64,000 nt of DNA from contig OY969696.1 in the NCBI GenBank assembly GCA_963702005.1, positions 2,496,001 through 2,560,000 on the forward strand, read 5' to 3'. Numbering within the stretch: position 1 is the first letter of the stretch; the number at the start of each line of letters is the position of its first letter. The translations under genes were made by a program, and so were the position numbers. Of the stretch, positions 5,886 to 43,212 are shown in pieces. Under the pieces are notes generated by a model. That model searched no databases. It was not told where the DNA came from and worked only from the letters and a program-made list of their open reading frames with translations. This stretch comes from Candidatus Aminicenantes bacterium. GTDB taxonomy: Bacteria; Acidobacteriota; Aminicenantia; Aminicenantales; JAFGBC01.

Positions 5886-7772
<1,887 letters not shown>

Positions 7773-10440: not shown

Positions 10441-10450
10441 GACCCTGGGA

Positions 10451-11973: not shown

Positions 11974-11980
11974 GAGGCCT

Positions 11981-16723: not shown

Positions 16724-16744
16724 GGCGCTCTTGATTCTACCATG

Positions 16745-16773
16745 TTGATTCCGGTGCGCGCCATCTGTATAGT
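16745..16773 (+). promoter_or_regulatory. sigma70-like promoter for dedA
   Basis: TTGATT-17 bp-TATAGT. Confidence 0.55.
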
Positions 16774-16776
16774 AGA

Positions 16777-19642: not shown

Positions 19643-19719
19643 TGGTCGGGACGGGCGGATTCGAACCGCCGACCCCATGCACCCCAAGCATGTGCGCTAC
19701 CAGGCTGCGCCACGTCCCG
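19643..19719 (-). tRNA. tRNA-Pro(GGG)
   Basis: CGGGACG acceptor stem, D-loop CCTGGTA, anticodon arm CATGC-TTGGGGT-GCATG, GTTCGAATC T-loop, encoded CCA; 77 nt. Confidence 0.97.
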
Positions 19720-23908: not shown

Positions 23909-23994
23909 GCCTTTTTGACCTGATTTTGCGGAAATCCTTTTCTGTGGTCAATCGACCCACCCGAGCTAGCTGACGCAACGTGCGAGGAGGCGCG

Positions 23995-25404
23995 ATGAAC
24001 GACCGGCCGGCATACGACATGAGGTTCATCTGGCTGACGACCTTAGTCTCGGCCATGGGAGGCCTGCTTTTCGGCTACGACTGGGTGGTCATCGGCGGCG
24101 CCAAGCCCTTCTACGAAAAATTCTTCAACCTGACGACACCCTCCCAAATCGGCTGGGCCATGAGCAGCGCCCTGGTCGGCTGCCTTGTCGGCTCGCTGGT
24201 CTCGGGCGGGCTCAGCGACCGCTACGGCCGGAAGAAGCTCCTGATCCTGTCCGCCATCCTGTTCACGGGGACCGGAATCCTGACCGCCCTGGCTCCGAAT
24301 TTCGCGTTTTTCATCGCTAACCGGCTCCTGGGCGGCGTCGCTATCGGCCTGGCCTCGAACCTCTCGCCTATGTACATCGCCGAGATCTCGCCAGCCGAAG
24401 TCCGGGGCAAATTCGTCTCGGTCAATCAGCTGACGATCGTCATCGGCATCCTGGCCGCCCAGCTGGTCAACTGGCTGATCGCCAGGCCGGTCCTTGCCGG
24501 CGCCTCAGCGGCCGATATCCTGAATTCCTGGAACGGCCAGGTCGGCTGGCGCTGGATGTTCGGGGCCGAAGCCGTGCCCGCGTTCCTGTTCTTCCTGTTG
24601 ATGTTCACGGTCCCGGAGAGTCCGCGCTGGCTGGTCAAGAACGGCAGGGGCGGCGACGCCGAGAAGATTCTGGCCCGGGTTGGCGGCGCCGGGTTCGCCG
24701 GCCGGGCCATGGTCGAGATCAAAGAGACACTGGCCGCGGCCGATATCCACAAGGTCCGCTTCCGCGCCCTCTTCGAACCGGGACTGTCCAAGGTCCTTCT
24801 GATCGGGATCGTCCTGGCCGTCTACCAGCAGTGGTGCGGCATCAACGTCATTTTCTACTACGCCGAGGAGATCTTCACGGCCGCCGGCTATGGCGTGAGC
24901 GACGTCCTGTTCAACATCGTCATCACCGGCACCGTGAACCTGATCTTCACCCTGATCGCCATCCGGCTCGTGGACAGGCTGGGCCGCAAGCCCTTGATGA
25001 TGGCCGGCTCGGCCGGCCTGGCCGTGGCCTTTGGGCTGGTGGGCGCGAGCTACGCCGCCCACAGCCGGGGCATTCATCTACTCGTCCTGGTCGTCCTATC
25101 CATGGCGCTCTATGCGCTGTCGCTGGCTCCCGTCACCTGGGTCCTTCTCTCGGAAATCTTTCCGAACCGAATCCGGGGCGCGGCCATGTCCGTGTCGACC
25201 TTCTCCCTCTGGTTGGCCTGTTTCATCCTGACCTACACCTTCCCGCACCTCAACCGGGGGCTGGGATCGGCCGGGACATTCTGGATCTACGCCGGGATCA
25301 GCGTCCTGGGGTTCCTATTTATCCGGACGCGCCTGACCGAAACCAAGGGGAAGACGCTCGAGCAGATCGAGCGCGAGCTGGTTCGTCTTCGGCCGGCGAG
25401 CTGA
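23995..25404 (+). CDS. Sugar porter family MFS transporter (XylE/AraE-like)
   Basis: GGLLFGYD, DRYGRK, YIAEISP..RG, PESPRWL, QQWCGINVIFYY, ETKGKTLE. Confidence 0.95.
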   Translation: MNDRPAYDMRFIWLTTLVSAMGGLLFGYDWVVIGGAKPFYEKFFNLTTPSQIGWAMSSALVGCLVGSLVSGGLSDRYGRKKLLILSAILFTGTGILTALAPNFAFFIANRLLGGVAIGLASNLSPMYIAEISPAEVRGKFVSVNQLTIVIGILAAQLVNWLIARPVLAGASAADILNSWNGQVGWRWMFGAEAVPAFLFFLLMFTVPESPRWLVKNGRGGDAEKILARVGGAGFAGRAMVEIKETLAAADIHKVRFRALFEPGLSKVLLIGIVLAVYQQWCGINVIFYYAEEIFTAAGYGVSDVLFNIVITGTVNLIFTLIAIRLVDRLGRKPLMMAGSAGLAVAFGLVGASYAAHSRGIHLLVLVVLSMALYALSLAPVTWVLLSEIFPNRIRGAAMSVSTFSLWLACFILTYTFPHLNRGLGSAGTFWIYAGISVLGFLFIRTRLTETKGKTLEQIERELVRLRPAS

Positions 25405-25690
25405 AGACCGCTTGCCTTTCTAAAAGCCTCCGAACCGCACTCTCAGCCCGACTCTCACGGAAAATCCGGAAAGGTCGATGACCGCCTTGCGGACATTCTG
25501 GTAAATCCCTGCCGGAGGCTCGTTCGCATCTATAACAAAACCGGGAAATTGCCCTCATTCCGTGTACCACAGAGAGGCATCCTCGACCGTTGTGTCGTCG
25601 GAAACAAAATCGCCCCGGAAATCGGTTGGCATTTCGGCCAACTTGGGAATAGAATACACCAGGCCGGATACAGAATCAAAGGAGGCTAGG

Positions 25691-26725
25691 ATGTCGGATA
25701 TGGCCAGTCATGGGCGGCGAACCGGGTTGGCGTTTCTCCTGACGACGGGCATCGTTTTATCTGCAGTTCCCTCGGTCGCCTCTCTCACCACGGAGCCTTC
25801 CCAACAAGTGAAGCGGCTGGGCCGCGGAGTGAACATCCTCGGATATGATCCGATCTGGGACAAGTTCGGGGACGGCCGCTTCAAGGAAAAGCATTTCAAG
25901 CTGATCCGCGAAGCCGGATTCCGGAGCGCGCGCATCAACCTGCACGCCCTTCAGCGAATGGATGCCGGCGCCGGCTATAAGCTCGATGAAGCCTGGCTGG
26001 GCACGCTGGATTGGGCCGTCAAGAAGGCCCTGGCAAATGACCTTATGGTCATCCTCGACCTTCACAACTATAACGACGTCGCCGAGGACCCGGCCGTCTT
26101 CAAGCCCCGCGTCCTGGCTTTCTGGAGGCTGATCGCCGGCCGCTTCAAGGACGCTCCGGACAGCGTGTTGTTCGAGATCCTCAATGAGCCTAACGGCCGG
26201 TTGACCTCCGAGCTTTGGAATGAGTGGATTCCCGAAGTGCTGGCGATCATCCGCGCTGCCAATCCGGAGCGAACGGTCGTAATCGGCCCTCCCTCATGGA
26301 ACGGCATCGACCGCCTGGACGATTTGAAGCTGCCGGAGTCGGACCGCAACATCATCGTGACCGTCCACTACTACGAGCCGATGCGGTTCACTCACCAGGG
26401 CGCGCCCTGGTCGCCCGAGAACGTTCGTTTTTCTGACGTCGGTTGGGGCAGCGAGCTCGATAAAAAGCGGGTGGAGGAAGACTTCGGCCGCGCCCGGAAA
26501 TGGGCGACTTTACACCGCCGGCCTGTATTTCTGGGCGAATTCGGTGCCTATGATAAGGGTCCGCTGGAATCAAGGGCCCGATATACGGCCTTCGTCGCCC
26601 GCAGCGCCGAATCCTTGGGCTGGGCTTGGGCCTACTGGCAGTTCGATTCGGATTTTATCGTCTACGATATCGACAAAGATCGCTGGGTGACCCCGATTCT
26701 AAAGGCCCTTATTCCCGATGAATAA
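25691..26725 (+). CDS. Glycoside hydrolase family 5 (endoglucanase-like), secreted
   Basis: GRGVN, ILDLH, FEILNEP (acid/base), VHYYEP, LGEFG (nucleophile); GGAGG RBS. Confidence 0.92.
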   Translation: MSDMASHGRRTGLAFLLTTGIVLSAVPSVASLTTEPSQQVKRLGRGVNILGYDPIWDKFGDGRFKEKHFKLIREAGFRSARINLHALQRMDAGAGYKLDEAWLGTLDWAVKKALANDLMVILDLHNYNDVAEDPAVFKPRVLAFWRLIAGRFKDAPDSVLFEILNEPNGRLTSELWNEWIPEVLAIIRAANPERTVVIGPPSWNGIDRLDDLKLPESDRNIIVTVHYYEPMRFTHQGAPWSPENVRFSDVGWGSELDKKRVEEDFGRARKWATLHRRPVFLGEFGAYDKGPLESRARYTAFVARSAESLGWAWAYWQFDSDFIVYDIDKDRWVTPILKALIPDE

Positions 26726-29700
26726 AGCGGCCTGTGATAGAATCACCGGCTCCGCGTTAGGCGCCGCCTGATAGATCACATAGCTTCCCCGTTCGTCCCT
26801 GACGGCCGGGAGGAGCTCGGAACGGCGTCCTTGCCTGACCTCCACCGTCGACCAATCTTCGGGCAGGTAGGTCTTTAAGGTGAGCGGAAGATCATATCTC
26901 GGATTGTTCAGGTCATGGCCCAGCACGATTTCGATTGCTTCTCCTCGTCGAGAGGAAGCCACTCGTCCGTGCATGCGCTCCCGCATGTACTTCGCGGCGT
27001 CCTGAAAGGTCGCCGTCCAGACTTGATTTGCTTTGGACTTGATATAGCCGAAATAATCCTTGAGCTCGGCGCCCGTCTTCGGTTCCCAGCCGATGCCGTC
27101 GACTCCGTGGAAAACCAAGACCAGCCACATATTGTCGTGCGCGGCGACCGTGTCGACCCACTCTTTCATCAGCGGCATCGGGGTCTTCGTCAAGACCCCC
27201 CGCTGCCACTGCACGTACTCTTTGGCGGAATCGGCGGGATTCTTGTCGCTGTCCCGGTCGAGTTCCTCCAGGAACGGCTCGGGCATGCGATTGCGCGAGG
27301 CCGGGTATCGCGCCAGGGCGAAGCCCACGACGCGTTCGTCCTCGGTGCCGTAGGGGCACTCGACCGTGAAGGTGTGCTTGGCGCCGAGGTGGTCAAGGAT
27401 TTCCTCGCGGCTTTTCTCAAGCTCGTAGACGAGGTTGGCGTCGTCCAGGACGGCCAGCCGGGGATGAGTGACCGTATGACTGGAAATCTCATGGCCTTGG
27501 GCGGCTAATGCGGCCAGCTCATCCCATGTCGGCATCTCACGCCCTTCCCGGGAGCCGGGCTGCGATGCTTCCGGTTTGAAGTCGCCGTGGCGGACCTTTG
27601 CGTAGGCTTCGTCGATGAGCCGGTAAGCCTCTTCCGGGCGGCCGTCCTCGTAGAGTTCGCCGGCGCGCGTATGGTATTCGAGAGTTCCGCTCAAGCCGAG
27701 GCGGCCGATCGCCGAAGCGCGCTCAAAAAAATTTTCCTTGTCGGTCGGAACCGCGGCCGTCTCCAAGACGACGGCCCGGGTCGGGCGTCCGATAAAGGCC
27801 CCCTGGTAGCGTGAGCCGGCCACTTCGCTCGTGATGATGTGGAAGGTAGCGGGCAGGCCCAGACCTCTCATGATGGGCACGGCGACGCGGAATTGATTGA
27901 TGCTGCCGTCATCGAAAGTCAGCGAGACCGCCGCGTTACTGCCATTTTGCCATTTGGCGATCTCCGTCCGTCCGGGTTTTTCCCGGCCGGGGGAGCCGGA
28001 TTTCCCGTTGAGCAATTCATCCGCGGCCAGGACCGTGAAGATGTAGCTTGCCGCGCCGCCGATGACGTTCTCGGCCTGCTGCCAGAGGAAGGGGAAATCA
28101 TCCTTGAGTTCCGGAAAATCCGGCCTGATCAGGGCTGTCCCCGAGACGTTCATCCCCGGGATATAAGACCAGTCCGCCCGGTTGAAGCCGTAGCCGATCG
28201 TCAGCGACCTTGCTCCGACGCCCGACACAAAAGAGACGTTGGAGCCGGGGTGGCAGCCAAGGACATAATTGAGGACCCGGAAAATCGTCTCGGGCCGGAA
28301 GAGTACGGGGAAGGCCTTGATGAGGAAATACTGGCCGATCGCGAAATCCTGAATGTCCCAGCCGATGCCCCAGATCTCCGGCCGCCAGAGAACGCCGAAG
28401 GGGTTGGAGGCGAGTTCGCGCTCGGTTTCCTCGGCGTAGCGAGCCGCGGCCCGGCCGACCGCGTCATGAAACGGCTGGTCTTTTATCAGCGGGAGAACCC
28501 GGCTGACGGTCCAACCGACCTCGTCGAAATTTTTTTCGATAACGGGCAGAAGCGCGGCGAGCCTGTCCCCGAACCTAGCCTGCTTCGTCGCTATCAGGAG
28601 CTCGACGGCGGCCAGGACCTCCTGGACTTCCGGCCGTCCGGGCACATAAGCGGCGTGGCCGACGACGGGCGTCCGGCTCTGTTCCCTGCCCCAGACCATA
28701 AGGGCCGTCTCCAGGCACTCGCGAGCCAGCTTTTCGTTCGTGCCCTTAAGCACGCGGCCGGCTGCGGCAAGGGCCGAGGCTACTTTGTACTCAAGGGAGG
28801 TGTCGGGATCGGTGAACGCCCAGCGATCATCCCTCAAATCCGAGCGTCCTTCCGCGGTTTCGTCGGGCTTGAGCGCCGGGTCGAAGATGCGGTTGTCGGT
28901 CATCGACGCCGTGTCGCCGAGCAGGGAGTACTGGACGATCGACCCTTCGATGATCCCGCAGAAGCTGTGGCCGGCGGCCCGGTAGCCGGAGAGGAGGCTC
29001 TCGGCGCCGTGTTCCACCTGCTGAACGACGTCCGGAATCCCATCCGGATCGTGGAGTACGACAAGCCTTCCGGCTTGATTGACCGTCGTCTGGTCGGTTG
29101 CCAGGCCGAACGTTTCCCTGATGAGTGCCAGAACCAAGGTCACGTCGGCTTGGGAGCCGGCGGCCAGGTCGTAGTCCCCGGCGTCGTGCCATCCTCCCCG
29201 GTCGAGATGGGGGATGTGCTCGAAAGCGGCGAATCGATCTTTGAGGACCGGGCCCTGTTGGTAGCTGTCGAAATGGACGGTCGAGGGCGGAGCCTGGACG
29301 GCGTCGTCGAGGTGGCAGGCCCCGTGCCAGATCCGGAGAACGTCCCGGACCTCAACGTGACACATCTGGACGGGAAGGTACGTCTCGAGGGTCGGCTGCC
29401 AGACGACACCGCGATACACATCGCGGCCGATTGCGAACGGCGGCGTTTCGACCGACCCGTACTTGACGATGTACATCCCGGGCTCGCGGACTTGGCTGAA
29501 ATCGAAGAAAGCGTAGTCATAGCGGAGGAACTTTCCAGTCCAAGGGATCGCCAAGGCGGTCAAGACTTCGCGCAATCCTCCGTCCCAATTGACCTGAAAG
29601 AGCGAGGCTTTGCCAGGGAGGCCCGAACGGCGGTCGAGCTCGATCACGGCCCGCTTGACCTGGTCGGGATGATAGCCGACCTGGGAGACGGCGATGACCG

Positions 29701-30490
29701 GCTCCCGCATCCATGCTGGGACCCGGTGCGGGGCGATGATCCATTCCGCCGCTCCCTTAGCCCGGCCGGGCTTCAAGGCCGAGCGGACGACGAACCAACC
29801 GTTGTCGGACGTATCGCGGCCGTCGTAGAGCTCCAGATCGCCGGTCAGGGATTCGATGGTCATCATCCTCAGCGGATCTTCCGGAGCGATGATAAGCTTG
29901 GGTCCTGCGGCTATGGCGACGGGCTGTAGCAAACCGAATTCTCCGGAGATCATCGGACCGTTTCCCTGCCGCGGGAAAACGGCGGATTTCGTCCCCAGAT
30001 GATAGGTTTTGCCGAAGTAGGCCGAGGGAAAAAGCTCTATATTGAAACTGGCCTTCCCGATGAGCCCGGCCGGCAGGGGCTGGTCAAGGTCCACCGAGAC
30101 GCGGACGGCCTCGCCTTCGGGCTTGACCCGGACTGTATAGCGCAATTCAGGCTTGGCGAAGGAGGCCGGGACCTTGATCTCGAGGCTGGACCGGTCGACT
30201 TGACGCCGGCCGATCATCGGAAGGTCGGCCCATTGTCCCGGCGTGACCTCGAGACGGACGTCGCCGTCGGCCGCGACCCTTTCCCCGTGCTGGATGATTT
30301 CGAGGCCGCCCTGTTTGCCCTCCGGATAATAGTCGTGGAAGACGAGGACCGAGATCGCCGGCGAATCGAAATATTCCTCGGGCGTGACGGTCCAGATCGA
30401 ATCGGGCGGCTGGACGGCATTCCCGTTCAACAAGCCCAGGCCGGCCAGAATCGCGATCGCGACAAGAATGAGAGCCCCGCGTTTCATCAT
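26699..30490 (-). CDS. Glycoside hydrolase family 9 protein with a C-terminal polysaccharide deacetylase (NodB/CE4-like) domain
   Basis: Signal peptide; SQVGYHP Ig-like domain, GGWHDAGD; then SLTFDDG, HEISSHTVTH, PYG, LVFHG. Confidence 0.85.
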   Translation of the reverse strand: MMKRGALILVAIAILAGLGLLNGNAVQPPDSIWTVTPEEYFDSPAISVLVFHDYYPEGKQGGLEIIQHGERVAADGDVRLEVTPGQWADLPMIGRRQVDRSSLEIKVPASFAKPELRYTVRVKPEGEAVRVSVDLDQPLPAGLIGKASFNIELFPSAYFGKTYHLGTKSAVFPRQGNGPMISGEFGLLQPVAIAAGPKLIIAPEDPLRMMTIESLTGDLELYDGRDTSDNGWFVVRSALKPGRAKGAAEWIIAPHRVPAWMREPVIAVSQVGYHPDQVKRAVIELDRRSGLPGKASLFQVNWDGGLREVLTALAIPWTGKFLRYDYAFFDFSQVREPGMYIVKYGSVETPPFAIGRDVYRGVVWQPTLETYLPVQMCHVEVRDVLRIWHGACHLDDAVQAPPSTVHFDSYQQGPVLKDRFAAFEHIPHLDRGGWHDAGDYDLAAGSQADVTLVLALIRETFGLATDQTTVNQAGRLVVLHDPDGIPDVVQQVEHGAESLLSGYRAAGHSFCGIIEGSIVQYSLLGDTASMTDNRIFDPALKPDETAEGRSDLRDDRWAFTDPDTSLEYKVASALAAAGRVLKGTNEKLARECLETALMVWGREQSRTPVVGHAAYVPGRPEVQEVLAAVELLIATKQARFGDRLAALLPVIEKNFDEVGWTVSRVLPLIKDQPFHDAVGRAAARYAEETERELASNPFGVLWRPEIWGIGWDIQDFAIGQYFLIKAFPVLFRPETIFRVLNYVLGCHPGSNVSFVSGVGARSLTIGYGFNRADWSYIPGMNVSGTALIRPDFPELKDDFPFLWQQAENVIGGAASYIFTVLAADELLNGKSGSPGREKPGRTEIAKWQNGSNAAVSLTFDDGSINQFRVAVPIMRGLGLPATFHIITSEVAGSRYQGAFIGRPTRAVVLETAAVPTDKENFFERASAIGRLGLSGTLEYHTRAGELYEDGRPEEAYRLIDEAYAKVRHGDFKPEASQPGSREGREMPTWDELAALAAQGHEISSHTVTHPRLAVLDDANLVYELEKSREEILDHLGAKHTFTVECPYGTEDERVVGFALARYPASRNRMPEPFLEELDRDSDKNPADSAKEYVQWQRGVLTKTPMPLMKEWVDTVAAHDNMWLVLVFHGVDGIGWEPKTGAELKDYFGYIKSKANQVWTATFQDAAKYMRERMHGRVASSRRGEAIEIVLGHDLNNPRYDLPLTLKTYLPEDWSTVEVRQGRRSELLPAVRDERGSYVIYQAAPNAEPVILSQAALFIGNKGL

Positions 30491-30541
30491 CTCGTTTCCT
30501 TCCGTCCAAAGGATATCGAGATGATGATAGCAGAAAACGCT

Positions 30542-32482
30542 TTAAAACACCTTGATCGCGCAGCCGGTCTCGAAGGTCCGTCCCCGCCAAGGGAATCCGG
30601 GCTCGGTGTAATAATATTTATCCATGAGGTTCGTGACCTTGACGAAAATCTCGACGATGGAAAAAGCGTAGGAAGCGACGGCGTCGAAGGTCAAATAGGA
30701 CGGGATATTTAGGAGCTTCCGCGTCCCGGTGTTGTACCAATAGGATTTCGAGGCGTAGAGGCCGAAGACGGACACGTTCAAGGACTTGAGGGGCCGGACC
30801 CGGGCCTCGAAGTTCAGGTTGTGGTCGGACAGGACATCGAGGGGGCGATCATCGGATTCGTTCCTGTGGTCGAGGTAGGTGTAGTTCAAGGACAGCTGGA
30901 CGGCCGGCCAGGCTTTCTGGACTTGGATCTCGGCGCCGTTGATGTGGGCCTTGCCGATGTTCCGGTACTGCCTCGTGCCGTCGGGGAGGAGGGCCGTATC
31001 GATCATGTCCCTGAGCGTGTTCACGAATAAGGCCCCGCTCAGATAAATGGCCTTGTTGTAAGTCGCCCCAAGCTCCCAGGACCGCGCCCTCTCGCTGAGA
31101 AGGCCGGGGTTTCCCGAGGACGGCGAATAGAGGGCCCTCATGCTCGGGAACTTGGACTTGCCCGAGAAGGAGAGATGCGCCTCGAAATCGTCGCCGGGGG
31201 CGTACTTGATGCCGACCAGGGGGTTGAGCTTCGAGGAGGCCGAGCCCTTGAACTTGGAAAGCCGGTCCCAGCTGGCGCCGGCGATGATCTTCCAGTCTTT
31301 GATGAGGGTGACGTGGTCCTCGGCGGCCAGCGAGAGCGTCCCCTGGTCGAACTTGGTCCAGGAAAGTCCGATGTCGTCCTGGGTTCGGGCCTCGTCCTTT
31401 TGGTAGTAGAGGCTGAGCTTAAGGCTGTTCCAGTCGTTGATGAAAAGATCGCCCAGGCCGAATACCCCGTAGACGGAGTTGTTGAAAGTGCTTTCGGATT
31501 GGCGTACTAAAAATGCGGAATCCTTGTACCAGTCGAGGCTGTTCTGATAGTTGACGTAGAAGGCCCGGAAGCGCAGGGTCGAGTTATCGCCCAAGGCCGT
31601 ATAGCCTCCGGCGTTCAGGGACGTGCGGTCCCAATCCTTGAAGCGCCAATAGCGGGGTTTGCCGAAGAGGTCGGGAGGCATGCCGTAGGCCGATGTGTAG
31701 TAGCCGGCGTTGACCATGAACTCGGTCCGGGAGGAGGGAATGTAGTAGAGCTTGGCGTTGAGGTTCAGGCGTTCGTAGTCGCTGTTGGAGCGGTCCGTCC
31801 GTCCCAGTTTGGGATCTTTATAAACGAATCCGTCGGACCCCTGGTAGAGGGCCGTTCCTACGAAGCCGAGACTCTTCCACTGGGCGGAGGAGTCCAGTCC
31901 CAGGCTGCGCGTCGTCCGGTCGCCCAGGGAAGCGCTCAGGCTCAAGGAGGGCTCCTGAGCGGGACGGCGGGTTATAACGTTGACGATCCCGCCCATGGTG
32001 TTGGGGCCGTAGAGGACGGAGGAGGGACCCTTTGTAATCTGGAGGGATTCGATCTGACCGGCCGACACGGTCTTGAGGTCGAAGGAGCCGTAGTAGGGTT
32101 CCACGACGGGGACGCCGTCCACGAGAAGGGCGATCCGCTTGGAATCGATGCCCCTGATCTTGAGCGTGTACTCGTCTTTGTTCCCGACCGTGACGTTAAC
32201 GCCGGTCGCGAACTTGATGGCTTCGGCCAGGTCGCGCGGCTTGAGAGCCTCGATCGACGTTTTCGCGATCCCGGTCACCGTAGCCAGCTCGACGTCCTTG
32301 GGCGCCTTGCCCACGACGAGTATTTCCTCGGTGATCTTGGGCTGTTGTTTTTCCTTCTCTTCTTGGGATGATTGGCCGGATTGGTCCTGAGACGAGAGGA
32401 CCGGCGAGGGCGTGACCATGAGGAGAGAAACAACGCCGATAAGGACGAGAGCGGGGAAGAAACGGTTGCGGGTTTTCATCAT
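30542..32482 (-). CDS. TonB-dependent outer-membrane receptor (BtuB/CirA-like size)
   Basis: Signal peptide, TonB box EEILVVG, plug IRG...LLVDG...KGPSSVLYG..GGIVNVIT, C-terminal NLMDK.Y...GRTF...F. Confidence 0.93.
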   Translation of the reverse strand: MMKTRNRFFPALVLIGVVSLLMVTPSPVLSSQDQSGQSSQEEKEKQQPKITEEILVVGKAPKDVELATVTGIAKTSIEALKPRDLAEAIKFATGVNVTVGNKDEYTLKIRGIDSKRIALLVDGVPVVEPYYGSFDLKTVSAGQIESLQITKGPSSVLYGPNTMGGIVNVITRRPAQEPSLSLSASLGDRTTRSLGLDSSAQWKSLGFVGTALYQGSDGFVYKDPKLGRTDRSNSDYERLNLNAKLYYIPSSRTEFMVNAGYYTSAYGMPPDLFGKPRYWRFKDWDRTSLNAGGYTALGDNSTLRFRAFYVNYQNSLDWYKDSAFLVRQSESTFNNSVYGVFGLGDLFINDWNSLKLSLYYQKDEARTQDDIGLSWTKFDQGTLSLAAEDHVTLIKDWKIIAGASWDRLSKFKGSASSKLNPLVGIKYAPGDDFEAHLSFSGKSKFPSMRALYSPSSGNPGLLSERARSWELGATYNKAIYLSGALFVNTLRDMIDTALLPDGTRQYRNIGKAHINGAEIQVQKAWPAVQLSLNYTYLDHRNESDDRPLDVLSDHNLNFEARVRPLKSLNVSVFGLYASKSYWYNTGTRKLLNIPSYLTFDAVASYAFSIVEIFVKVTNLMDKYYYTEPGFPWRGRTFETGCAIKVF

Positions 32483-32483
32483 T

Positions 32484-32589
32484 CCTCCTTTTCAAATTCG
32501 GAAGGCCGGGCCGTTTCCAGCCGGACCCTATCGGCCTGAGGGCTTGTCACGTCGTTTTCGACGGGATTTAGCTCCGCAGGCTCGGAGAA
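32484..32589 (-). ncRNA. Moco/Tuco RNA motif (putative molybdenum/tungsten cofactor riboswitch)
   Basis: Minus strand TTCTCC-GA-GCCTG...CTAA...CAGGC-CGAT-AGGGTCCGGCT-GGAAAC-GGCCCGGCCT-TCCGAATTTGAAAA-GGAGGAA; P1 UUCUCC pairs over the RBS; matches recalled Moco hallmarks. Confidence 0.78.
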
Positions 32590-32697
32590 GCCAAGAGTCT
32601 AACACAGACCGTGACATCTTAGCAACTCCGGCGATGGCGATTTTTGACTTCTTTTATTAGCTGTGCTAATAACCACTCGAGAGGGCCGAGCGCGGCT

Positions 32698-33219
32698 ATG
32701 AAGATCGTCGGGATCAGCGGGCCATCGGGAAGCGGGAAGACGACACTCATCCGCCTCCTCATTCCGGAACTCCGCAAACGGAGGCTCAAGGTCGCCGTCG
32801 TCAAGCACTGCCCTCACGGCTTCGACCTCGAAAGGGAAGGGAAGGACTCTTGGCGCTTCGCTCAAGCCGGTGCCCAGGGCGTGGCCATGGTCTCCGGGGA
32901 CAGGCTGGCCGTGGCTTACAGGGGTCGCCAGAGACGCAATTGGAAGGCTCTGGCCGATCGCTTTTTCCCGGGGGTCGATATCGTCATTGTCGAGGGCGGA
33001 CGGAACATCAAGGACATCCGGACGATCGAGATCGTAACGGGCCCGGCGGCGTCCGGAGCGCGCAACCGCGATCCGCGGCGGGTGGCCATCATTGTGCCAT
33101 CCGGACGGGGCGTCTCGCGGATCCCGGCAGCCGACATCAAAGCGTTGGCCCGGTTTCTGGAGATAGAACTCCCGGACGAGGCGCCCGGCGCCAAGTCAGT
33201 TCCCCAACGGAGGTCCTAA
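32698..33219 (+). CDS. mobB: Molybdopterin-guanine dinucleotide biosynthesis protein B
   Basis: [35 protein letters not shown]. Confidence 0.9.
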   Translation: MKIVGISGPSGSGKTTLIRLLIPELRKRRLKVAVVKHCPHGFDLEREGKDSWRFAQAGAQGVAMVSGDRLAVAYRGRQRRNWKALADRFFPGVDIVIVEGGRNIKDIRTIEIVTGPAASGARNRDPRRVAIIVPSGRGVSRIPAADIKALARFLEIELPDEAPGAKSVPQRRS

Positions 33220-33335: not shown

Positions 33336-34211
33336 ATGAAACGACGTGAATTCCTGGTGACCGGGGCGGCCGTTGCCCTCGGCGGCTTGGCGGGTACGGC
33401 AAAGCCCGTTTCGGGAGACGCAGCCAGGGCCAAACCGGCCGGCGCCCTTCCCACCGTGCGGCTGGGAACGCTCGAAGTGTCACGCCTGATCCTCGGGTCC
33501 AATCCGTTCTGGGGTTACTCCCATAAGTCCGCCCAGCTTGACGAGGAAATGAAGCGGCACCACACCGACGAGCGGATCATTCAGATTCTCGAGGAGGCGG
33601 CCGACTGCGGGCTGACGGCCGTGGCCAGCCCGCCCGAAGATCGCTGGAGAAAGCTTTGGACGCGCTACGCGGAAAGCGGCGGCCGGCTCAAGATCTGGAT
33701 CTCGCAGTGCCATGGGAAACCCGAGCAGATGCTCGAGGAGATCGATCGCTCCGTCACGGCTGGCGCCAAGGCGATCTTCATCCAGGGCGCTCGGGTCGAG
33801 GAGCAGTTCGGACGGGGCAATTTCGATAGGCTCCGGACCTGGATCGAGCATATCAAAGAGGCCGGCCTTCCGGCGGGCGCCGCGGCGCATTGGCCCGAGA
33901 TCCATCCCGAGCTCGAGCGGCGCAAATTCCCCACGGATTTCTATTACCAGTGCATGTATAACGTCTCTAAAACCGACGACTACAGTCCGGCCGAGCGGGA
34001 GAAAGCCGTTGCGACCATCACGCGGCTGGACAAGCCGGTCATTGCCTACAAAATCCTGGGGGCTGGTCGCCTCTCAGCCGGCGAAGGATTTGAATTCGCG
34101 TTCAATCATATCCAACGCAAAGACGGCGTCTGTGTCGGCATCTATGCTCAAAACGCGATCGACCAGATCCGCCAAAACGCCACCTACACCGAGATGCTTA
34201 CGACACGATAG
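33336..34211 (+). CDS. Tat-exported protein, divergent aldo/keto-reductase-like fold
   Basis: MKRREFL Tat signal; LPTVRLGTLEVSRLILGSN; KPVIAYKILGAGR. Confidence 0.65.
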   Translation: MKRREFLVTGAAVALGGLAGTAKPVSGDAARAKPAGALPTVRLGTLEVSRLILGSNPFWGYSHKSAQLDEEMKRHHTDERIIQILEEAADCGLTAVASPPEDRWRKLWTRYAESGGRLKIWISQCHGKPEQMLEEIDRSVTAGAKAIFIQGARVEEQFGRGNFDRLRTWIEHIKEAGLPAGAAAHWPEIHPELERRKFPTDFYYQCMYNVSKTDDYSPAEREKAVATITRLDKPVIAYKILGAGRLSAGEGFEFAFNHIQRKDGVCVGIYAQNAIDQIRQNATYTEMLTTR

Positions 34212-34350: not shown

Positions 34351-35934
34351 CTAAAGATCGCGGCGGGTCCACTCGCCGTCGATGAGACGCCACATGCGTC
34401 CGTTCGGATTCCGGTCCTGAAGTTCGGGGGGGAGCCTATGGGGCCGGACTCCGTCGTAGCAACGGAGAGCGGCGAAGCGGAGCAGGGAGGCTGGGATTCC
34501 GACCGCCGTGAATCCCGGATGTCCGGTCGCTGGATAGGGCCCGCCGTGGTTCATGGCCGGGCTGACGGCGACTCCGGTCGGCATCCGGTCGTTGAGAAGG
34601 CGCCCAACTTTTTGCTTGAGCAGCGGCTCGACCTCGCGGTAGGCCGTCTCGTCCTCGTCCCCGCTTCCGCTGTAGACGGTTCCCGTCAGGCTGCCCTCCA
34701 GAACAGATACGACGGCGTGGAGCTCCTCGAGGTTTTCGGCGATCACGAGGAGAGACACCGAGCCGAAGGCCTCGGTCTGTAAATCCCTGGGCGACCTCAA
34801 AAAGGCTCTTCCCGAAACGCGGAGGAGCGTCGGGGCAAACAAGAATCCGGGGTCTTCCGGCGGCTTGCCCCGGGCGATGATCTCGGCCCCGTGCCGGCCC
34901 AGATTTTCCAGGGAGCGGACGACGCTTTCGAGCGTCTTCCGGCCGACGAGAACGCCGGGACTCGCTGCTCGGAAAAGAGAAACCGCGCTCTCGATGAACT
35001 CGTCCGCGCCCGGCCCCTTGACGAGAATGACCATGCCCGGCTTGGTGCAGAATTGGCCGGCGCCCAGCGTGCAAGATTCGAAAAGTTCCTTGGAGATCGC
35101 CTCAGGCTTCTCTTCGAGCGCGGCGCGAAGGATGATGACGGGATTGACGCTCGACATTTCGACACTGATGGGTTTGCCGGCCCGGTCGGCAGCATCCTTG
35201 AGACGGAGACCGGCCGGCCGGCTTCCGGTGAAGGCCGAGGCGGCGACAAGGGGATGGGCGACGAGCCGGAGCCCGGCATCGTCATCGATATGATAGACCA
35301 TCTGGACGGCCGCGGCGGGAAGGCCGCTCCGGGCCGAGGCCTCGGATGCGGCTTCGGCCAGCACGCGGCTCGTCCCCGGATGCAGGGGATGGGCCTTGGC
35401 CAAGACGGGATTTCCAGCGGCCAGGGCGGCCGCAAAATCGCCGCCCGAGACGGCGTTGAACGCGAACGGAAAATTGTTGGGCCCGAAGATGAGGACCGGC
35501 CCGCCGAGCGGCTCGAACATGGAGCGGATCCCGGCCCGGGTGTCGATCATCGCCCGGCACCAGGACCGATCGCGCACGGCTTCGGCCGCCATCCGGAGCT
35601 GGCCCGTCGTCCTAGGAAGCTCGACGGTTCGGAGGCGAGGCTCCGCGGGCAGCCCGGTTTCCCGATGCGCGATCTCGACGAGGTCCGGAGCGCGCCGCTC
35701 GATCAGTTCGGCGTAGATTTCGAAAAAATCAGCCCTGACCTCGGGCGGCAGATCGCTGAGCTCCACGGCGGCACGCGCTCCGGCCCGAACGGCCAACTCG
35801 ACTTCTTCAAAGGAGGAGACCGGGAACTCCGCGCCGAAAGGTTGGCCTGTCAGGGGAGAGACGGGCCGAAAGGTTCCGGCTGGGGCGTGGGGCGGCCTGA
35901 TACGGCCCTCGATCAAGACCGGCTCAAGGGGCAT
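34351..35934 (-). CDS. Aldehyde dehydrogenase (NADP+), alpha-ketoglutaric-semialdehyde-dehydrogenase-like
   Basis: ELPRTTGQL, FGPNNFPFAF, KAHPLHP, FTGS, EMSSVNP, GQFCTKPG, PTGVAV..AM.HGGPYPAT. Confidence 0.9.
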   Translation of the reverse strand: MPLEPVLIEGRIRPPHAPAGTFRPVSPLTGQPFGAEFPVSSFEEVELAVRAGARAAVELSDLPPEVRADFFEIYAELIERRAPDLVEIAHRETGLPAEPRLRTVELPRTTGQLRMAAEAVRDRSWCRAMIDTRAGIRSMFEPLGGPVLIFGPNNFPFAFNAVSGGDFAAALAAGNPVLAKAHPLHPGTSRVLAEAASEASARSGLPAAAVQMVYHIDDDAGLRLVAHPLVAASAFTGSRPAGLRLKDAADRAGKPISVEMSSVNPVIILRAALEEKPEAISKELFESCTLGAGQFCTKPGMVILVKGPGADEFIESAVSLFRAASPGVLVGRKTLESVVRSLENLGRHGAEIIARGKPPEDPGFLFAPTLLRVSGRAFLRSPRDLQTEAFGSVSLLVIAENLEELHAVVSVLEGSLTGTVYSGSGDEDETAYREVEPLLKQKVGRLLNDRMPTGVAVSPAMNHGGPYPATGHPGFTAVGIPASLLRFAALRCYDGVRPHRLPPELQDRNPNGRMWRLIDGEWTRRDL

Positions 35935-35942
35935 GGGGTGGA

Positions 35943-36170
35943 TCAGCCTCCGGAGTATATGGGGGCGATGACGACCCGGTCGCCTTCGCGGAGAACGTCC
36001 TGGGGGCGGAGGGTTTCGCCGTTCCGGGTCATGATCATGGGCTTGGGATTATTGAGGTTGATAAGGGCGACGACGGCTTCGGCCGTCGCCCCTTCGGCGA
36101 GTTCGACTTCTTTTTCGCTGAAGCCGGCCGAAACTATGAAGGGGCCGATGATCTTGACGGTGATCCTCAT
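35943..36170 (-). CDS. MoaD/ThiS family sulfur carrier
   Basis: Beta-grasp size, RNG, LREGD, C-terminal SGG; directly downstream of AOR. Confidence 0.88.
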   Translation of the reverse strand: MRITVKIIGPFIVSAGFSEKEVELAEGATAEAVVALINLNNPKPMIMTRNGETLRPQDVLREGDRVVIAPIYSGG

Positions 36171-36200
36171 GGGCACGACTCCAGGGCGCTCCTTTCCAGT

Positions 36201-38039
36201 TTAGGTGAGCTTGGCGATTTTTTCTACGACCTCGGCCTCGTCGGCCAGACCCAATGCGACGGCCGTCGCCTTGGTCGGGATGCCCCGCTTGTCATAGCCG
36301 CGTATGTCGTAATAGTGCTGGAGGAGGCCGTCGTACTTGTCGTATTCGAGGCATTTTCCGGCGATTGGGCCCTCGCTGTCGACGTTGGAGGGGTCGAACC
36401 AAACCGCGGGCGGATAGTCCAGCTTGCGCTCGGTCCGCGGATATTCCCGGAGCCAGAAGAGCTTCATCATGGCATAGATCCGGTCGGAGACCCTCCAGAA
36501 ATCGTCGAGCGTCCAGTCCAGGCCGCTGACCAGGTTGAAGTACTTGGGATAATTCTCCAGGCTCCAGCCGAGCTCGATCCAGGGGAAGCGGCAGGAGACG
36601 ATGGACTCGAACAGCCCGCCCCGGATCCTCTGAAGGTCGATGACCTTCTGGGCTTTCTCGGGGCCGTAGGAATCGCGCGACGTTTGCTTGAGCTCGAAGG
36701 TGATAACCCAGGATTCTTTGTGATGGGCGCCGATCGGGGAGACGCCGAAGGCCAGGGCCATGCCGGGGATGAACTTGCAGTTGTAGGCGGCGACCTCGAG
36801 TCCCTTGACCTGCATGGCGTAGGCCTCGGAATTCTTGCCGATCGTCCGCGCCGCCCGCAGCGAGCCTTCGGCCAGGAGGTTTCCGATTTCACCCTCGCGG
36901 CGGGCGATCTTTCCCAGAAGCTCCTTGGCCTTGGCGGCGTCGCCGAACTTGAAATCGCCGGCGACGGCGCCCTGATCGATGGCGTCGGCGTAGAAGCTCA
37001 GGACGCAGCCGCCCGACATGGTGTCGATCCCGTAGTCGTCGCAAAGATAGTTGAGCGAGGCGACTTGGGCCAGGTCGAAGATTTCCAGGTTCGGCCCGAG
37101 CAGGGCGACGTTTTCGTAATCGAGCTCGGACTCGCGCCCCTCGGCGTCGTGGATGGCGATGCCGCAGCGCATCGTGCAGTTCGGGCAGCCGTAGGTGGCG
37201 ACCCGGGCGTTGTTGAGTCGCTCGCCGTCTACTTTCCAGGCGTCGGCGTGAAAGGTCTTCCGGAAATTGCGGACGGGGAGGGCGGCCACCTCGTTGCACC
37301 AGGCCAGGACGCCGTTCGTGCTCTGGATCGACCAGCCGGTCTCCTTGTCGATCTGGTGGACTTTTTTGAGGTCGTCCGAGCCGATCTTCTTCATGGCCTC
37401 CGGGTCGGCCTGGGGAATCGGTTTCGTCCCCTTGACGACGATAGCCTTGAGGCGCTTCGAGCCCATGACGGCGCCCATGCCCGTCCGGCCGCCCGACCGG
37501 CCCTCGAGGCTGCGGACGACGGCCCAGCGGACCATCCTTTCGCCGCCCTGGCCGATGTTGAGGACGCCGATGCCTTTCCCATATTTCGCGTAAATCCAGT
37601 CGTTGGTTTCGTAGGTTCCTTTGCCCCAGACGGCGTCGGCGGGAAGGAACTCGACCTTGTCGTCTTCGATGGCCAGCAGGGTCGGGCGTTCCGCCCGGCC
37701 TTCGACGATCAAGGCGTCATAACCGGCCTTGCGGAGATGCTCGGCGACCCGGGTCCCCAGGTTTCCGTCGCCGTAGCCGCCCGTGCTGGGCGACTTGCCT
37801 GCGACGACGGCCTTGCCCGTATTGGGTGCGGGGATGCCGGCGATCGGGCCGAGGGCGACGATGAACTTATTGTCCGGGCCGAGGGGGTCGACGCCGGGCG
37901 CGAGCTCGTCGAAGAGGATCTTGGCGGCGAAGCCGCGGCCGCCGATCCATTTGCGGGCAAAATCCTCGTCGAAATGATCGACCTTGGAAGTTTTATGGGT
38001 CAGGTTGACCCTCAGGATGCGTCCCGTCCAGCCGTTCAT
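36201..38039 (-). CDS. aor: Aldehyde:ferredoxin oxidoreductase (tungsten-pterin AOR family)
   Basis: GRILRVNL, GGRG, KSPSTGG, GRTGMGAVMGSK, CxxCxxxC (CPNCTMRC), CDDYGID, GIPT; true start MNGWTG at 38039 with GAGGT RBS. Confidence 0.94.
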   Translation of the reverse strand: MNGWTGRILRVNLTHKTSKVDHFDEDFARKWIGGRGFAAKILFDELAPGVDPLGPDNKFIVALGPIAGIPAPNTGKAVVAGKSPSTGGYGDGNLGTRVAEHLRKAGYDALIVEGRAERPTLLAIEDDKVEFLPADAVWGKGTYETNDWIYAKYGKGIGVLNIGQGGERMVRWAVVRSLEGRSGGRTGMGAVMGSKRLKAIVVKGTKPIPQADPEAMKKIGSDDLKKVHQIDKETGWSIQSTNGVLAWCNEVAALPVRNFRKTFHADAWKVDGERLNNARVATYGCPNCTMRCGIAIHDAEGRESELDYENVALLGPNLEIFDLAQVASLNYLCDDYGIDTMSGGCVLSFYADAIDQGAVAGDFKFGDAAKAKELLGKIARREGEIGNLLAEGSLRAARTIGKNSEAYAMQVKGLEVAAYNCKFIPGMALAFGVSPIGAHHKESWVITFELKQTSRDSYGPEKAQKVIDLQRIRGGLFESIVSCRFPWIELGWSLENYPKYFNLVSGLDWTLDDFWRVSDRIYAMMKLFWLREYPRTERKLDYPPAVWFDPSNVDSEGPIAGKCLEYDKYDGLLQHYYDIRGYDKRGIPTKATAVALGLADEAEVVEKIAKLT

Positions 38040-38114
38040 TGTGTGTACCTCGATTGGTAGGATGGTCGATCGTTCGAACCGTTCTTCTATTCGATAGCAC
38101 AGGACCATAGCCAA

Positions 38115-38181
38115 GTCAACCCCTCGACACTCATAGAAGCCATGAGTACTGCAAGGCTGGGTAGCGTAGGCGAACGGGTCA
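38115..38181 (-). mobile_element. Miniature TGAC-bounded element, short form, copy B (intergenic, aor/pspC)
   Basis: Minus strand TGAC-CCGTTCGCCTACGCTACCCAGCCTTGCAGTACTCATGGCTTCTATGAGTGTCGAGGGGT-TGAC; TTGAC at both ends; internal hairpin ACTCAT-7 nt-ATGAGT. Confidence 0.8.
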
Positions 38182-38271
38182 AGCTTGGTGGGCTTCACGC
38201 CCCCCATGAACATTCCGGGCCGAGATGCGTATAAAGAATGGGGACTACGACCGATCCCCAGGAGGTGCGTT

Positions 38272-38472
38272 ATGGCCAAGAGATTGTATCGCTCGACGAC
38301 CCATAAAATGCTGGGCGGCATCTGCGCCGGGCTGGCCAACTATTTCGACCTCGATATCTCCCTGATGCGGCTGATTTTCGTCGCGGTTGCCCTGGTCACG
38401 GCCCTGTTCCCGATGCTGCTCTTTTACATCATCGCCTGGATCGTCATTCCTTCCCAGCCCCAGGAGAACTGA
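38272..38472 (+). CDS. PspC domain protein
   Basis: KRLYRS...MLGGICAGLANYF...YIIAWIVIP; AGGAGG RBS. Confidence 0.92.
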   Translation: MAKRLYRSTTHKMLGGICAGLANYFDLDISLMRLIFVAVALVTALFPMLLFYIIAWIVIPSQPQEN

Positions 38473-43199: not shown

Positions 43200-43212
43200 G
43201 GCCCCTCCTAGG

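Follow-up and report, generated by a model that had tools for sequence, protein, structure and literature searches.

A Moco-class riboswitch in the leader of a TonB-dependent receptor gene from Aminicenantes: a candidate outer-membrane step in the uptake of a Mo/W-pterin cofactor

Moco is usually regarded as built by each cell for itself. According to the abstract of a review, most organisms cannot acquire it as a nutrient. The targets of the Moco/Tuco riboswitches described by Regulski et al. 2008 are moaABCDE, modABC, tup/wtp and the genes of Mo/W enzymes, and the terms 'TonB' and 'outer membrane' are absent from the main text of that article (PMC2408646). For the metal oxyanions, MolBC-A has been described as a low-affinity molybdate/tungstate importer (PMC4031551, PMC4245157). 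As for the cofactor itself, dietary uptake has been described in Caenorhabditis elegans (PMC7849362), and Moco cross-feeding has been proposed from metagenomes of anammox consortia, the relevant part of that article naming no transporter (PMC11460484). In Pelobacter carbinolicus, ligand-gated outer-membrane channels have been placed near molybdopterin-responsive riboswitches (PMC3543383). Our literature search, which had subscription journals and supplements outside its scope, found no TonB receptor controlled by a Moco riboswitch and no characterised bacterial Moco importer, in keeping with the initial annotation of the locus studied here, which knew of no characterised transporter of this kind.

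As an example of a cofactor riboswitch standing before an outer-membrane receptor, we consider a locus from an Aminicenantes genome (one contig, 4.31 Mb, 94% complete). Using cmscan and Rfam 15 on the whole window (the complete 64,000-nucleotide stretch of DNA that was analysed), we obtained two matches over the gathering score, a tRNA at 19646-19719 and the Moco RNA motif RF01055 at 32470-32598 on the minus strand (64.1 bits, gathering score 36, E 4.1e-13); RF00174, the cobalamin riboswitch, had no match in the window. The RF01055 match spans the full model, positions 1-135, and corroborates the initial annotation, which had recognised the Moco RNA hallmarks in the receptor 5' UTR. The conserved stretches CUCCGAGC, CUAA, AGGG and GGAAAGGAG and the GAAA tetraloop of P4 are all readable in this leader, and the columns of these stretches are invariant in an alignment of 19 riboswitch sequences. 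In the alignment, stems P1, P2, P4, whose loop reads GGAAAC, and P5 can all be recognised and the model's P3 hairpin has no counterpart, which confirms what the initial annotation had given as an apparent absence of P3. The element groups with the P3-less class that is found before TonB-dependent receptor, tupA, wtpA and moeA genes, and its length of 129 nt is below the 137-155 nt of the P3-containing copies that precede an ABC importer (see below). As to tungsten, a missing P3 has been linked to it in the literature by correlation alone (PMC2408646).

P1 is formed by UUCUCC on its 5' side and GGAGGA on its 3' side, the latter abutting the ATG at 32482; a second ATG lies at 32479. Because GGAGGA stands directly before the first of these codons, P1 covers the Shine-Dalgarno site, as had been suggested from the GGAGG motif, and the region AAGGAGGA (32483-32490, minus strand) would act as a translational OFF platform. 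A consensus scan of 30300-32800 for promoters and terminators returned no match, and so neither supports a platform of the terminator type nor places a promoter.

The receptor gene (30542-32482, minus strand) encodes a protein of 646 aa in which a hydrophobic N-terminus resembling a signal peptide, a TonB-box-like EEILVVG and a final Phe can be recognised by eye, and in which Pfam places a Plug domain (PF07715, 71.7 bits, E 8.5e-20) and a barrel (PF00593, TonB_dep_Rec_b-barrel, 123.4 bits, E 2.9e-35), both over the cut-off. Nine TonB_C matches occur in the source genome. Among related receptor loci, the association with the riboswitch is conserved: RF01055 lies directly upstream on the same strand in 26 of 32 (L025, which has no upstream DNA, was left unscanned), which answers positively the question of whether orthologous receptors keep the motif. 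A permissive rescan of three receptor loci without riboswitch (L012, L022 and L028) gave none at E<=0.1. When the genomes of the class are taken together, receptors of at least 48% identity have the riboswitch directly upstream in at least 27 of 38 cases, as read from the match positions listed. Conversely, when riboswitch loci from genomes devoid of the biosynthetic pathway were examined, the gene behind the riboswitch was a TonB-dependent receptor of the source-genome family in 12 of 13.

Divergent from the receptor, as first described, is mobB (32644-33219, plus strand; TIGR00176, 97.5 bits against 76.2), for a P-loop GTPase of molybdopterin-guanine-dinucleotide synthesis whose probable start, read from the sequence, is the in-frame ATG at 32698. 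Within 6 kb there is also, on the minus strand, the row of genes that the initial annotation had reported as moaD plus an AOR. It begins with an aldehyde:ferredoxin oxidoreductase (AOR) of the tungstopterin enzyme family (36201-38339; AFOR_N E 6.7e-72, AFOR_C E 6.5e-98) and continues with a small MoaD/ThiS-family protein of 77 aa (35943-36176; ThiS E 9.9e-09) and an NAD(P)-type aldehyde dehydrogenase (34351-35934; Aldedh E 5.5e-49). Over the 46 loci compared, mobB adjoins the receptor in 6, AOR lies upstream of it in 11 and an aldehyde dehydrogenase is present in 12; by tblastn, mobB was found in 4 of 20 loci from genomes of the class. Orthologous loci do keep Mo/W neighbours, the recurrent ones being AOR, MobB or a small P-loop NTPase (NTPase_1/DUF2478).

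Several other neighbours were set aside. An ORF cluster located downstream of the receptor on the same strand in 8 loci (C8) has no Pfam match, is rich in Arg, Gly and Pro and resembles the reverse frame of a real gene; it was therefore treated as spurious and the receptor as monocistronic. The 291-aa protein encoded after mobB (33336-34211) is not kept in other loci and belongs to no family, which places it outside the system, and the BamB-like, MgsA and SurE genes convergent with the receptor represent housekeeping synteny and not partners.

Homologues of the receptor are automatically named 'outer membrane cobalamin receptor' or 'iron complex outermembrane receptor protein', and both its best NCBIfam match and its nearest solved structure (E 1e-18, aligned over residues 60-638) are BtuB, so the protein might import a cargo such as cobalamin, haem or an iron chelate, the riboswitch merely tying its expression to cofactor status. 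The receptor nevertheless stays below every NCBIfam cut-off: its best score, to TonB-B12, is 165.5 against 599.7, which leaves it far under the BtuB equivalog TIGR01779, as it is under NF007926 (114.5 against 836), and it falls short of the siderophore and haem receptor families as well (TIGR01783, 127.8 against 223.5; TIGR01785, 125.7 against 316.85). Its leader, too, differs from that of the one distant BtuB-like relative in our set (L036, 23% identity), where a cobalamin riboswitch stands in place of RF01055. The prevalence of the Moco riboswitch before the related receptors and the AOR/MobB neighbourhood tie the family to Mo/W cofactor metabolism, and we consider an unrelated cargo very improbable indeed.

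Profile searches of the source genome gave no match to MoaC, the C-terminal domain of MoaA, MoaE or MoeA_N, and the lone MoCF_biosynth match is CinA, so that no MogA, MoaB or MoeA was found. TupA, WtpA and ModA were not found either: the PBP_like_2 profile matched three proteins, each of them a PstS adjoining PstC, and SBP_bac_11 matched PotD. Using Aminicenantia MoeA, MoaC, TupA and WtpA as tblastn queries against this genome, we recovered nothing at E<=1e-3, and Aminicenantia MoaA yielded weak radical-SAM matches only. The same genome holds four AFOR_C matches, a reductase of the DmsA/YnfE family (880 bits, cut-off 778), a xanthine-dehydrogenase-family subunit and the late tailoring genes, namely MobA-like, MobB, MocA-like and XdhC-like. 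The cofactor users and the late steps are kept in this 94%-complete genome, and the early steps and metal insertion were not found.

We then surveyed 151 genomes of the class, counting as pathway-less those with neither MoaC nor MoeA. There are 40 of these and 111 pathway-positive genomes. TupA or WtpA occurs in 0 of the 40, against 101 of the 111. AOR is kept in 28 of the pathway-less genomes, 24 of which have the receptor (23 at 48% identity or more) and 20 the riboswitch; among the 12 with neither pathway nor AOR, 9 are without the receptor and 11 without the riboswitch. From these counts, the receptor tracks cofactor use and the oxyanion pumps track cofactor synthesis. The pathway-less genomes are mutually related (families f1 and f4-f7, two f2 genera, one f9 genome and f12), and the counts are consequently not independent events. 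Within the 28 pathway-less AOR genomes, 4 are without a detected receptor and 4 more have the receptor without the riboswitch, exceptions that speak against cofactor salvage.

The source genome contains exactly two RF01055 matches. The second one is P3-containing and heads an operon of Peripla_BP_2, FecCD and ABC_tran genes (G000:C1:669-672 kb), which according to Pfam encode the binding protein (671094-672164), permease and ATPase of a type II ABC importer. Of 7 operons orthologous to this one in other genomes, 6 have the riboswitch as well, and 7 of the 8 genomes with the binding protein are without MoaC and MoeA. That the two riboswitches of the genome belong to different structural classes, P3-less and P3-containing, would be unexpected for two parts of one route, a point against salvage. 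The best solved relative of the permease is HI1471/MolB (177.8 bits, best of 8; FhuB 153, BtuC 108). The binding protein also matches HI_1472/MolA, at 44.8 bits and with the C-terminal lobe in common; MolA is its fourth-best structure match, the top three being named periplasmic or iron-complex binding proteins. These resemblances to MolB and MolA likewise count against salvage. The oxyanion-coordinating residues of MolA, K221 and R264, are those given in a single 2026 preprint (bioRxiv 10.64898/2026.10.15.759412). In the HMMER alignment, R264 falls on a Trp of the binding protein, a weak point as the numbering offset is inferred; this Trp is kept in 6 of 6 full-length riboswitch-linked orthologues. 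K221 falls outside the aligned stretch.

Most related cofactor-auxotrophic genomes have instead, adjoining mobB or AOR, a gene for a six-helix membrane protein of 206 aa. It was found in 21 of the 28 pathway-less genomes with AOR, against 3 of the 111 pathway-positive ones, and 26 of the 28 have either it or the ABC binding protein. It has no homologue in the source genome and no Pfam family, and in the ESM Atlas it leads to unnamed clusters and, weakly, to Trep_Strep (score 0.81).

A metal cargo has to be considered at this point. The receptor could import trace tungstate or molybdate, a metallophore, or a thio or polyoxo complex of W or Mo, to be passed to an inner-membrane pump (TupABC or WtpABC in the relatives, the MolBC-A-like importer in the source genome), and the riboswitch would then be feedback from the finished cofactor, as for modABC and tupABC. 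P3-less riboswitches of the same class do head tupA, wtpA and moeA-moaA-moaC operons in related genomes, and in genome G036 one riboswitch-led operon (L079) joins a receptor of 38% identity, a secreted protein of 372 aa and tupABC, an arrangement that fits metal uptake and goes against salvage. So does the presence of the receptor family, with the same riboswitch, in 53 of the 111 genomes where the full pathway occurs together with TupA or WtpA. The affinity of the riboswitch-led permease to MolB, from a Haemophilus molybdate/tungstate importer, points the same way, as does the remark that the Pelobacter carbinolicus channels 'may transport metals' (PMC3543383). However, MoaC and MoeA were not found in the source genome and 39 others, and the former is also without detected MogA/MoaB, MoaE and MoaA; with these genes not found, an imported metal could not enter a pterin. 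The proven oxyanion binding proteins have gone with the pathway while the receptor stays in 24 of the 28 pathway-less AOR genomes, and, as read from match positions, a receptor relative and TupA share a contig stretch in just 1 of about 22 genomes that have both. The Trp in place of MolA R264 would at most argue weakly against an oxyanion. Taken together, we regard metal import as the main rival reading and as rather unlikely.

The cargo of the receptor could also be a pterin precursor that carries no metal (molybdopterin, a breakdown product or cyclic pyranopterin monophosphate). The metal would in that case have a separate way in, for example through the MolBC-like importer, and would depend on an unrecognised enzyme for its insertion. 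The occurrence of the two riboswitch classes on different transporters could mean two cargoes, a MolB-like permease fits a small oxyanion, and the MobB or NTPase_1/DUF2478 P-loop protein beside the receptor has no assigned role. Use of cyclic pyranopterin monophosphate would however need MoaD/MoaE, and use of molybdopterin MogA/MoeA, and neither MoaE nor any MoCF_biosynth protein besides CinA was found in the source genome. In addition, 21 of the 28 pathway-less AOR genomes are without a MolBC-like binding protein, TupA or WtpA, and so would have no recognised metal pump. We hold such a precursor to be an improbable cargo.

The reading that we prefer, with a probability of roughly 0.55, is that the receptor is the outer-membrane step in the uptake of a preformed Mo/W-pterin cofactor, by a system built like BtuB/BtuCDF. 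The initial annotation had proposed salvage either of the intact cofactor or of a metallophore complex. Salvage is supported and, of its two forms, the genome-wide evidence favours the intact cofactor, because the genes for biosynthesis, metal insertion and oxyanion ABC transport were not found whereas cofactor-dependent enzymes and late tailoring genes are present; the substrate is what we infer from this pattern. Free Moco is labile, which counts against salvage. Under conditions of cofactor scarcity, the leader RNA would leave the ribosome site free and the TonB-dependent receptor would be made, which would use TonB energy to bring in through the outer membrane either the cofactor or a closely related compound that carries the metal. 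At the inner membrane, the riboswitch-led type II ABC importer would carry the cofactor onward in the source genome, and the six-helix protein may replace it in most related auxotrophic genomes. The MobA, MobB, MocA-like and XdhC-like proteins would subsequently tailor the cofactor and insert it into DmsA-type, xanthine-dehydrogenase-type and AOR enzymes. When abundant, the cofactor would bind the aptamer, P1 would close over GGAGG and translation would stop. Extended to the class, this suggests, at about even odds, that several free-living anaerobic Aminicenantia lineages are Mo/W-pterin auxotrophs for which the finished metal-pterin is a vitamin, scavenged through a dedicated riboswitch-gated TonB-dependent receptor and a MolBC-like importer or the new six-helix family, followed by MobA/MocA/XdhC/MobB tailoring.

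If cofactor uptake is correct, the system would be the first known to take up Moco/Tuco in bacteria, and the weak molybdate binding by Haemophilus MolA would suggest a larger natural ligand. A bacterial importer would also alter how W/Mo enzyme capacity is read from genomes, since AOR, DMSO-reductase-type and xanthine-dehydrogenase-type enzymes may still be at work in organisms classed as having 'no Moco pathway', and a metal cofactor would join the vitamins exchanged in anoxic sediments and digesters. The receptor, the binding protein and the six-helix membrane protein are candidate genes for Moco transport and bear on cofactor delivery generally; the gene set is small and the prediction directly testable.

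Among known systems, BtuB/BtuCDF shares with this one a small TonB-dependent receptor whose leader has a riboswitch for a finished cofactor, an inner-membrane step by a type II ABC importer and its periplasmic binding protein, and the retention of late tailoring steps in auxotrophs; by sequence, BtuB is also the nearest solved structure. It differs in its aptamer, RF00174 where we find RF01055, in receptor scores that here lie far under the BtuB cut-offs, and in the cargo, proposed here to be a labile metal-pterin. MolBC-A (HI1470-HI1472) of Haemophilus influenzae is likewise molybdenum-linked, with MolB nearest to our permease and MolA resembling the binding protein in its C-terminal lobe; by contrast, MolA is just the fourth-best match and its R264 is, on a weak alignment, not matched. 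Haemophilus makes its own cofactor, whereas the biosynthetic pathway was not found in the source genome. With the regulons of Regulski et al. 2008, the locus has in common the RNA family, the platform combining P1 and the ribosome site and the split into P3-containing and P3-less forms, and related genomes show the classical targets tupA, wtpA and moeA-moaA-moaC; here, by contrast, the riboswitches precede genes for an outer-membrane receptor and a type II importer, and the biosynthetic pathway was not found in their genome. TonB receptors with TPP riboswitches (BT2390-type, thiamine) offer a precedent for predicting cargo from a cofactor riboswitch before such a gene (PMC5317091), for another cofactor and another receptor family. 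The remark on Pelobacter carbinolicus is a single sentence that favours metal transport and is given, in that part of the article, without comparative or pathway analysis. Finally, the accounts of Caenorhabditis elegans and of anammox consortia resemble our proposal in that the finished cofactor is shown or proposed to pass between organisms, the first of them concerning an animal and the second being a metagenomic inference.

The receptor gene (window 30542-32482, minus strand) encodes a 646-aa protein that has TonB-dependent-receptor plug and barrel domains, a signal peptide, EEILVVG as a TonB-box-like motif and Phe as its last residue; the TonB C-terminal domain has nine matches in the genome. 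Searching the whole window with Rfam 15 yielded two matches above the gathering score, one tRNA and, in front of the receptor at 32470-32598 (-), RF01055, the riboswitch for the Mo/W-pterin cofactor (Moco/Tuco), with 64.1 bits against a gathering score of 36 (E 4.1e-13, model positions 1-135). This agrees with the initial annotation, which had recognised Moco-riboswitch hallmarks in this 5' UTR: every motif that it listed can be read in the sequence, and in the alignment to the model P1, P2, P4 with its GGAAAC loop and P5 are all present and the P3 hairpin, thought to be missing, is indeed deleted. P1 has GGAGGA as its 3' strand (partner UUCUCC), which ends one base ahead of the ATG at 32482, a second ATG of the ORF being at 32479, so that a closed P1 would mask the ribosome site, as had also been proposed. 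A consensus promoter/terminator scan found no terminator-like site near the leader, and we infer that it would act as a translational OFF switch, the usual form of the Moco riboswitch family.

The gene context stands as originally described, with mobB divergent from the receptor gene (probable in-frame start ATG 32698, intergenic region of 215 bp) and an aldehyde:ferredoxin oxidoreductase (AOR) and a MoaD/ThiS-like ORF nearby; these two share the stretch 34351-38339 with an aldehyde dehydrogenase. A 291-aa ORF 3' of mobB (33336-34211, +) carries a signal of twin-arginine type (RREFLV...), matches no family and is not retained at other receptor loci. On the receptor strand, a polysaccharide-degradation cluster (23980-30490) starts 51 bp downstream of the receptor with a 1263-aa GH9, CelD_N and polysaccharide-deacetylase protein, after which come a GH5 cellulase and a sugar MFS transporter. 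Relatives have BamB-like, MgsA and SurE genes in place of the cluster, which may therefore be an insertion. A 250-aa protein at 42771-43523 (-) carries both a rubredoxin-like rubrerythrin motif and a ferredoxin-thioredoxin-reductase beta (FtrB-like) domain.

Among 8000 candidates scored, 867 proteins, mainly from Aminicenantes, are receptor homologues at E <= 0.001, and the matches listed (120 of the 867) are 56-98% identical; automatic annotation calls them, for example, 'cobalamin receptor' or 'iron complex receptor'. BtuB is the closest solved structure by sequence, and the receptor is well under all NCBIfam cut-offs, the top model being TonB-B12 (165.5 vs 599.7). We surveyed 34 receptor loci from species-representative genomes, excluding L025, which lacks upstream DNA, and L036, a proteobacterial gene of 23% identity. 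RF01055 is directly 5' of the receptor, on the same strand, in 26 of the remaining 32 (52-72 bits, 119-131 nt), so the motif is retained among related loci; it is missing from L012 (56% identity) and from five loci at 44-47%, and permissive rescans of three of these six gave no RF01055 match. The leader of L036 is instead a cobalamin riboswitch (109 bits), an internal control for the appearance of a true BtuB. We consider a cargo unrelated to the Mo/W cofactor very improbable.

The genome carrying the window (G000) is a single contig of 4.31 Mb, 94% complete, in which profile searches found no MoaC, MoaA C-terminal domain, MoaE or MoeA_N; CinA is its sole MoCF_biosynth protein, which leaves no MogA, MoaB or MoeA. 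As an independent check, tblastn with MoeA, MoaC, TupA and WtpA of relatives gave nothing at E <= 1e-3, and with their MoaA generic radical-SAM matches only. No oxyanion binding protein was found among the PBP_like_2 matches (three, PstS with PstC adjacent) and the lone SBP_bac_11 match (PotD). The genome does encode MobB, four matches to AFOR_C (the C-terminal Pfam domain of AOR), a DmsA/YnfE-family reductase 3 kb from a MobA-like gene, and a xanthine-dehydrogenase-family enzyme adjoined by XdhC-like and MocA-like genes. By gene content this is a predicted user and tailor of the cofactor, without molybdopterin building or metal insertion. The most coherent reading, to which we give a probability of roughly 0.55, makes the receptor the outer-membrane component of a route that salvages the finished Mo/W-pterin cofactor and is repressed by its own cargo. 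Import of a pterin without its metal, which would enter by itself and need an unrecognised insertase, seems to us improbable.

We searched one set of 151 genomes (class level, completeness 80% or more) with nine queries and found RF01055 in 114, MoaC in 105, MoeA_N in 108, AFOR_C in 137, the receptor (E <= 1e-80) in 80, TupA in 65 and WtpA in 36; the remaining two concerned an ABC binding protein (8 genomes) and a 206-aa membrane protein (25 genomes). Nine genomes with only one of MoaC and MoeA were scored pathway-positive. Both are missing from 40/151 genomes, which are relatives (families f1, f4-f7 and f12, two genera of f2 and one f9 genome) and so are not 40 independent events; three of them are single-contig (G000, G089, G135). 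Where the pathway is missing and an AOR present (n=28), the receptor occurs at 48% identity or above in 23 genomes and at 36-46% in one, with none in four; the riboswitch is found in 20 and TupA/WtpA in 0. The same figures are 1, 2 and 9, with riboswitch in 1 and TupA/WtpA in 0, for genomes with neither pathway nor AOR (n=12), and 14, 39 and 58, with riboswitch in 93 and TupA/WtpA in 101, for pathway-positive genomes (n=111). The oxyanion pumps therefore track the biosynthetic pathway, and the receptor tracks cofactor use.

At 12 of 13 loci fetched from pathway-less genomes the receptor is the gene behind the riboswitch, the 13th having an aldehyde dehydrogenase/MFS pair. G125 has a P3-containing Moco riboswitch (L092:8351-8491, -, 75.2 bits) in front of genes for an NAD-type aldehyde dehydrogenase and an MFS/POT-family transporter (ORFs 6631-8262 and 5136-6524, -); by analogy with metE under a B12 riboswitch, this dehydrogenase may be a cofactor-independent stand-in for AOR, repressed when cofactor is available.

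In pathway-positive relatives, the P3-less riboswitch heads tupABC-moeA-moaC (G003), wtpABC-moeA...moaC (G033) or moeA-moaA-moaC (G052, G036), and a second P3-less copy heads a receptor, which in G003 is 56% identical to that of the window and has mobB adjacent. The receptor orthologue of pathway-positive G067 (C3:984112-986026) is broken into two matches, with an in-frame TGA, and may thus be a pseudogene; its riboswitch remains (C3:986056-986177). In G078 three Moco riboswitches lie within 8 kb of one contig (C13:8317-16096), surrounding a receptor relative (10297-12135) and wtpA (16102-17049). Secreted proteins of 372 aa (L079:3017-4135, -) and 336 aa (L084:3781-4791, -), 27% identical and with no Pfam family, are directly 3' of 38-40%-identical receptor relatives, that of L079 between receptor and tupABC.

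Uptake of the metal itself, as oxyanion or chelate, has its best single argument in G036, where one operon holds a 38%-identical receptor, the secreted 372-aa protein (no family) and tupABC, a linkage which by-eye reading of positions places in G036 alone among about 22 genomes with both genes. It also draws on the ABC importer behind the second of exactly two RF01055 matches in G000 (C1:672157-672311, 40.4 bits, P3 hairpin present), which comprises a periplasmic binding protein (Peripla_BP_2), a FecCD permease and an ABC ATPase. Against solved structures the permease is nearest HI1471/MolB of Haemophilus influenzae (177.8 bits), followed by FhuB (153), haem permeases (146-152) and BtuC (108); for the binding protein, HI_1472/MolA ranks fourth (44.8 bits), below three structures named only periplasmic or iron-complex binding proteins. 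MolBC-A is described as a low-affinity molybdate/tungstate importer, repressed by molybdate via 'an unknown factor' (PMC4031551, PMC4245157), so that a type II importer is able to transport an oxyanion. Metal uptake explains no use for the metal in a cell without molybdopterin synthesis or MoeA, and we regard it as rather unlikely. Among the oxyanion-coordinating residues of MolA, K221 and R264 (preprint 10.64898/2026.10.15.759412), R264, taken as chain residue 243 by an offset inferred from Y301 = chain Y280, aligns with a Trp of the ABC binding protein; this Trp is found in 6/6 full-length riboswitch-linked orthologues, and Thr in the copy without riboswitch. The apparent mismatch at this site is suggestive but weak.

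Orthologous ABC operons occur in 8/151 genomes of the class, seven of which lack MoaC and MoeA, and six of the seven fetched outside G000 carry the riboswitch (137-149 nt); the exception is a 39%-identical copy in a pathway-positive genome. Alignment of 19 leaders separates two sequence classes, the P3-less preceding receptor, tupA, wtpA and moeA, and the P3-containing preceding the ABC importer and, in one genome, the aldehyde dehydrogenase/MFS pair. The riboswitch-led operon of G113 (L104:2700-3555) looks decayed, with the binding protein reduced to about 80 residues, the ATPase to its C-terminal portion and no permease match; this genome also has the 206-aa membrane protein adjoining mobB and receptor. 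Just downstream of the operon in G000 (L037:3198-7232; C1:665-669 kb) come two 504-aa ORFs side by side, one of them with a reverse-transcriptase domain, and a DUF6414 protein.

Neighbour clustering of 46 receptor loci placed AOR upstream in 11 and aldehyde dehydrogenase in 12, with MobB nearby in six; a ThiF-family protein also recurs. In four loci (L019:5186-5704, +, and L011, L033, L091) the place that MobB has elsewhere, immediately upstream of the receptor, is taken by a 172-aa NTPase_1/DUF2478 P-loop protein. The 206-aa protein, with about six hydrophobic helices, is found in 7/46 loci, and copies of its family lie beside mobB, receptor or AOR (L088:8367-8987, +; L094:91-711, -; L097:8001-8630, +; L089:4845-5528, -), often directly adjoining an AOR gene by their coordinates. 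Searches found no Pfam family for it, and in the Atlas unnamed clusters only. It is present in 21/28 pathway-less genomes with AOR, 1/12 without AOR and 3/111 pathway-positive genomes, and 26 of the 28 have either it or the ABC binding protein; this distribution makes it a candidate for an alternative inner-membrane carrier. G000 has no homologue, and there the ABC importer would take its role.

In the literature searched we found no description of a bacterial Moco importer and no study of the pairing of Moco riboswitch and TonB receptor. Regulski et al. 2008 speak of neither 'TonB' nor an outer membrane in their main text (PMC2408646), and one sentence of the Pelobacter carbinolicus genome paper reads channels near molybdopterin riboswitches as metal transport (PMC3543383). 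Cross-feeding of Moco has been proposed in anammox consortia, with no transporter named (PMC11460484), and its uptake is established in C. elegans (PMC7849362). Riboswitch-gated TonB-dependent cofactor uptake is itself a known principle, and what would be new here is Moco/Tuco as its cargo. The model for the proposed layout of receptor and importer is BtuB/BtuCDF, and the salvage route would be organised as these are for B12.
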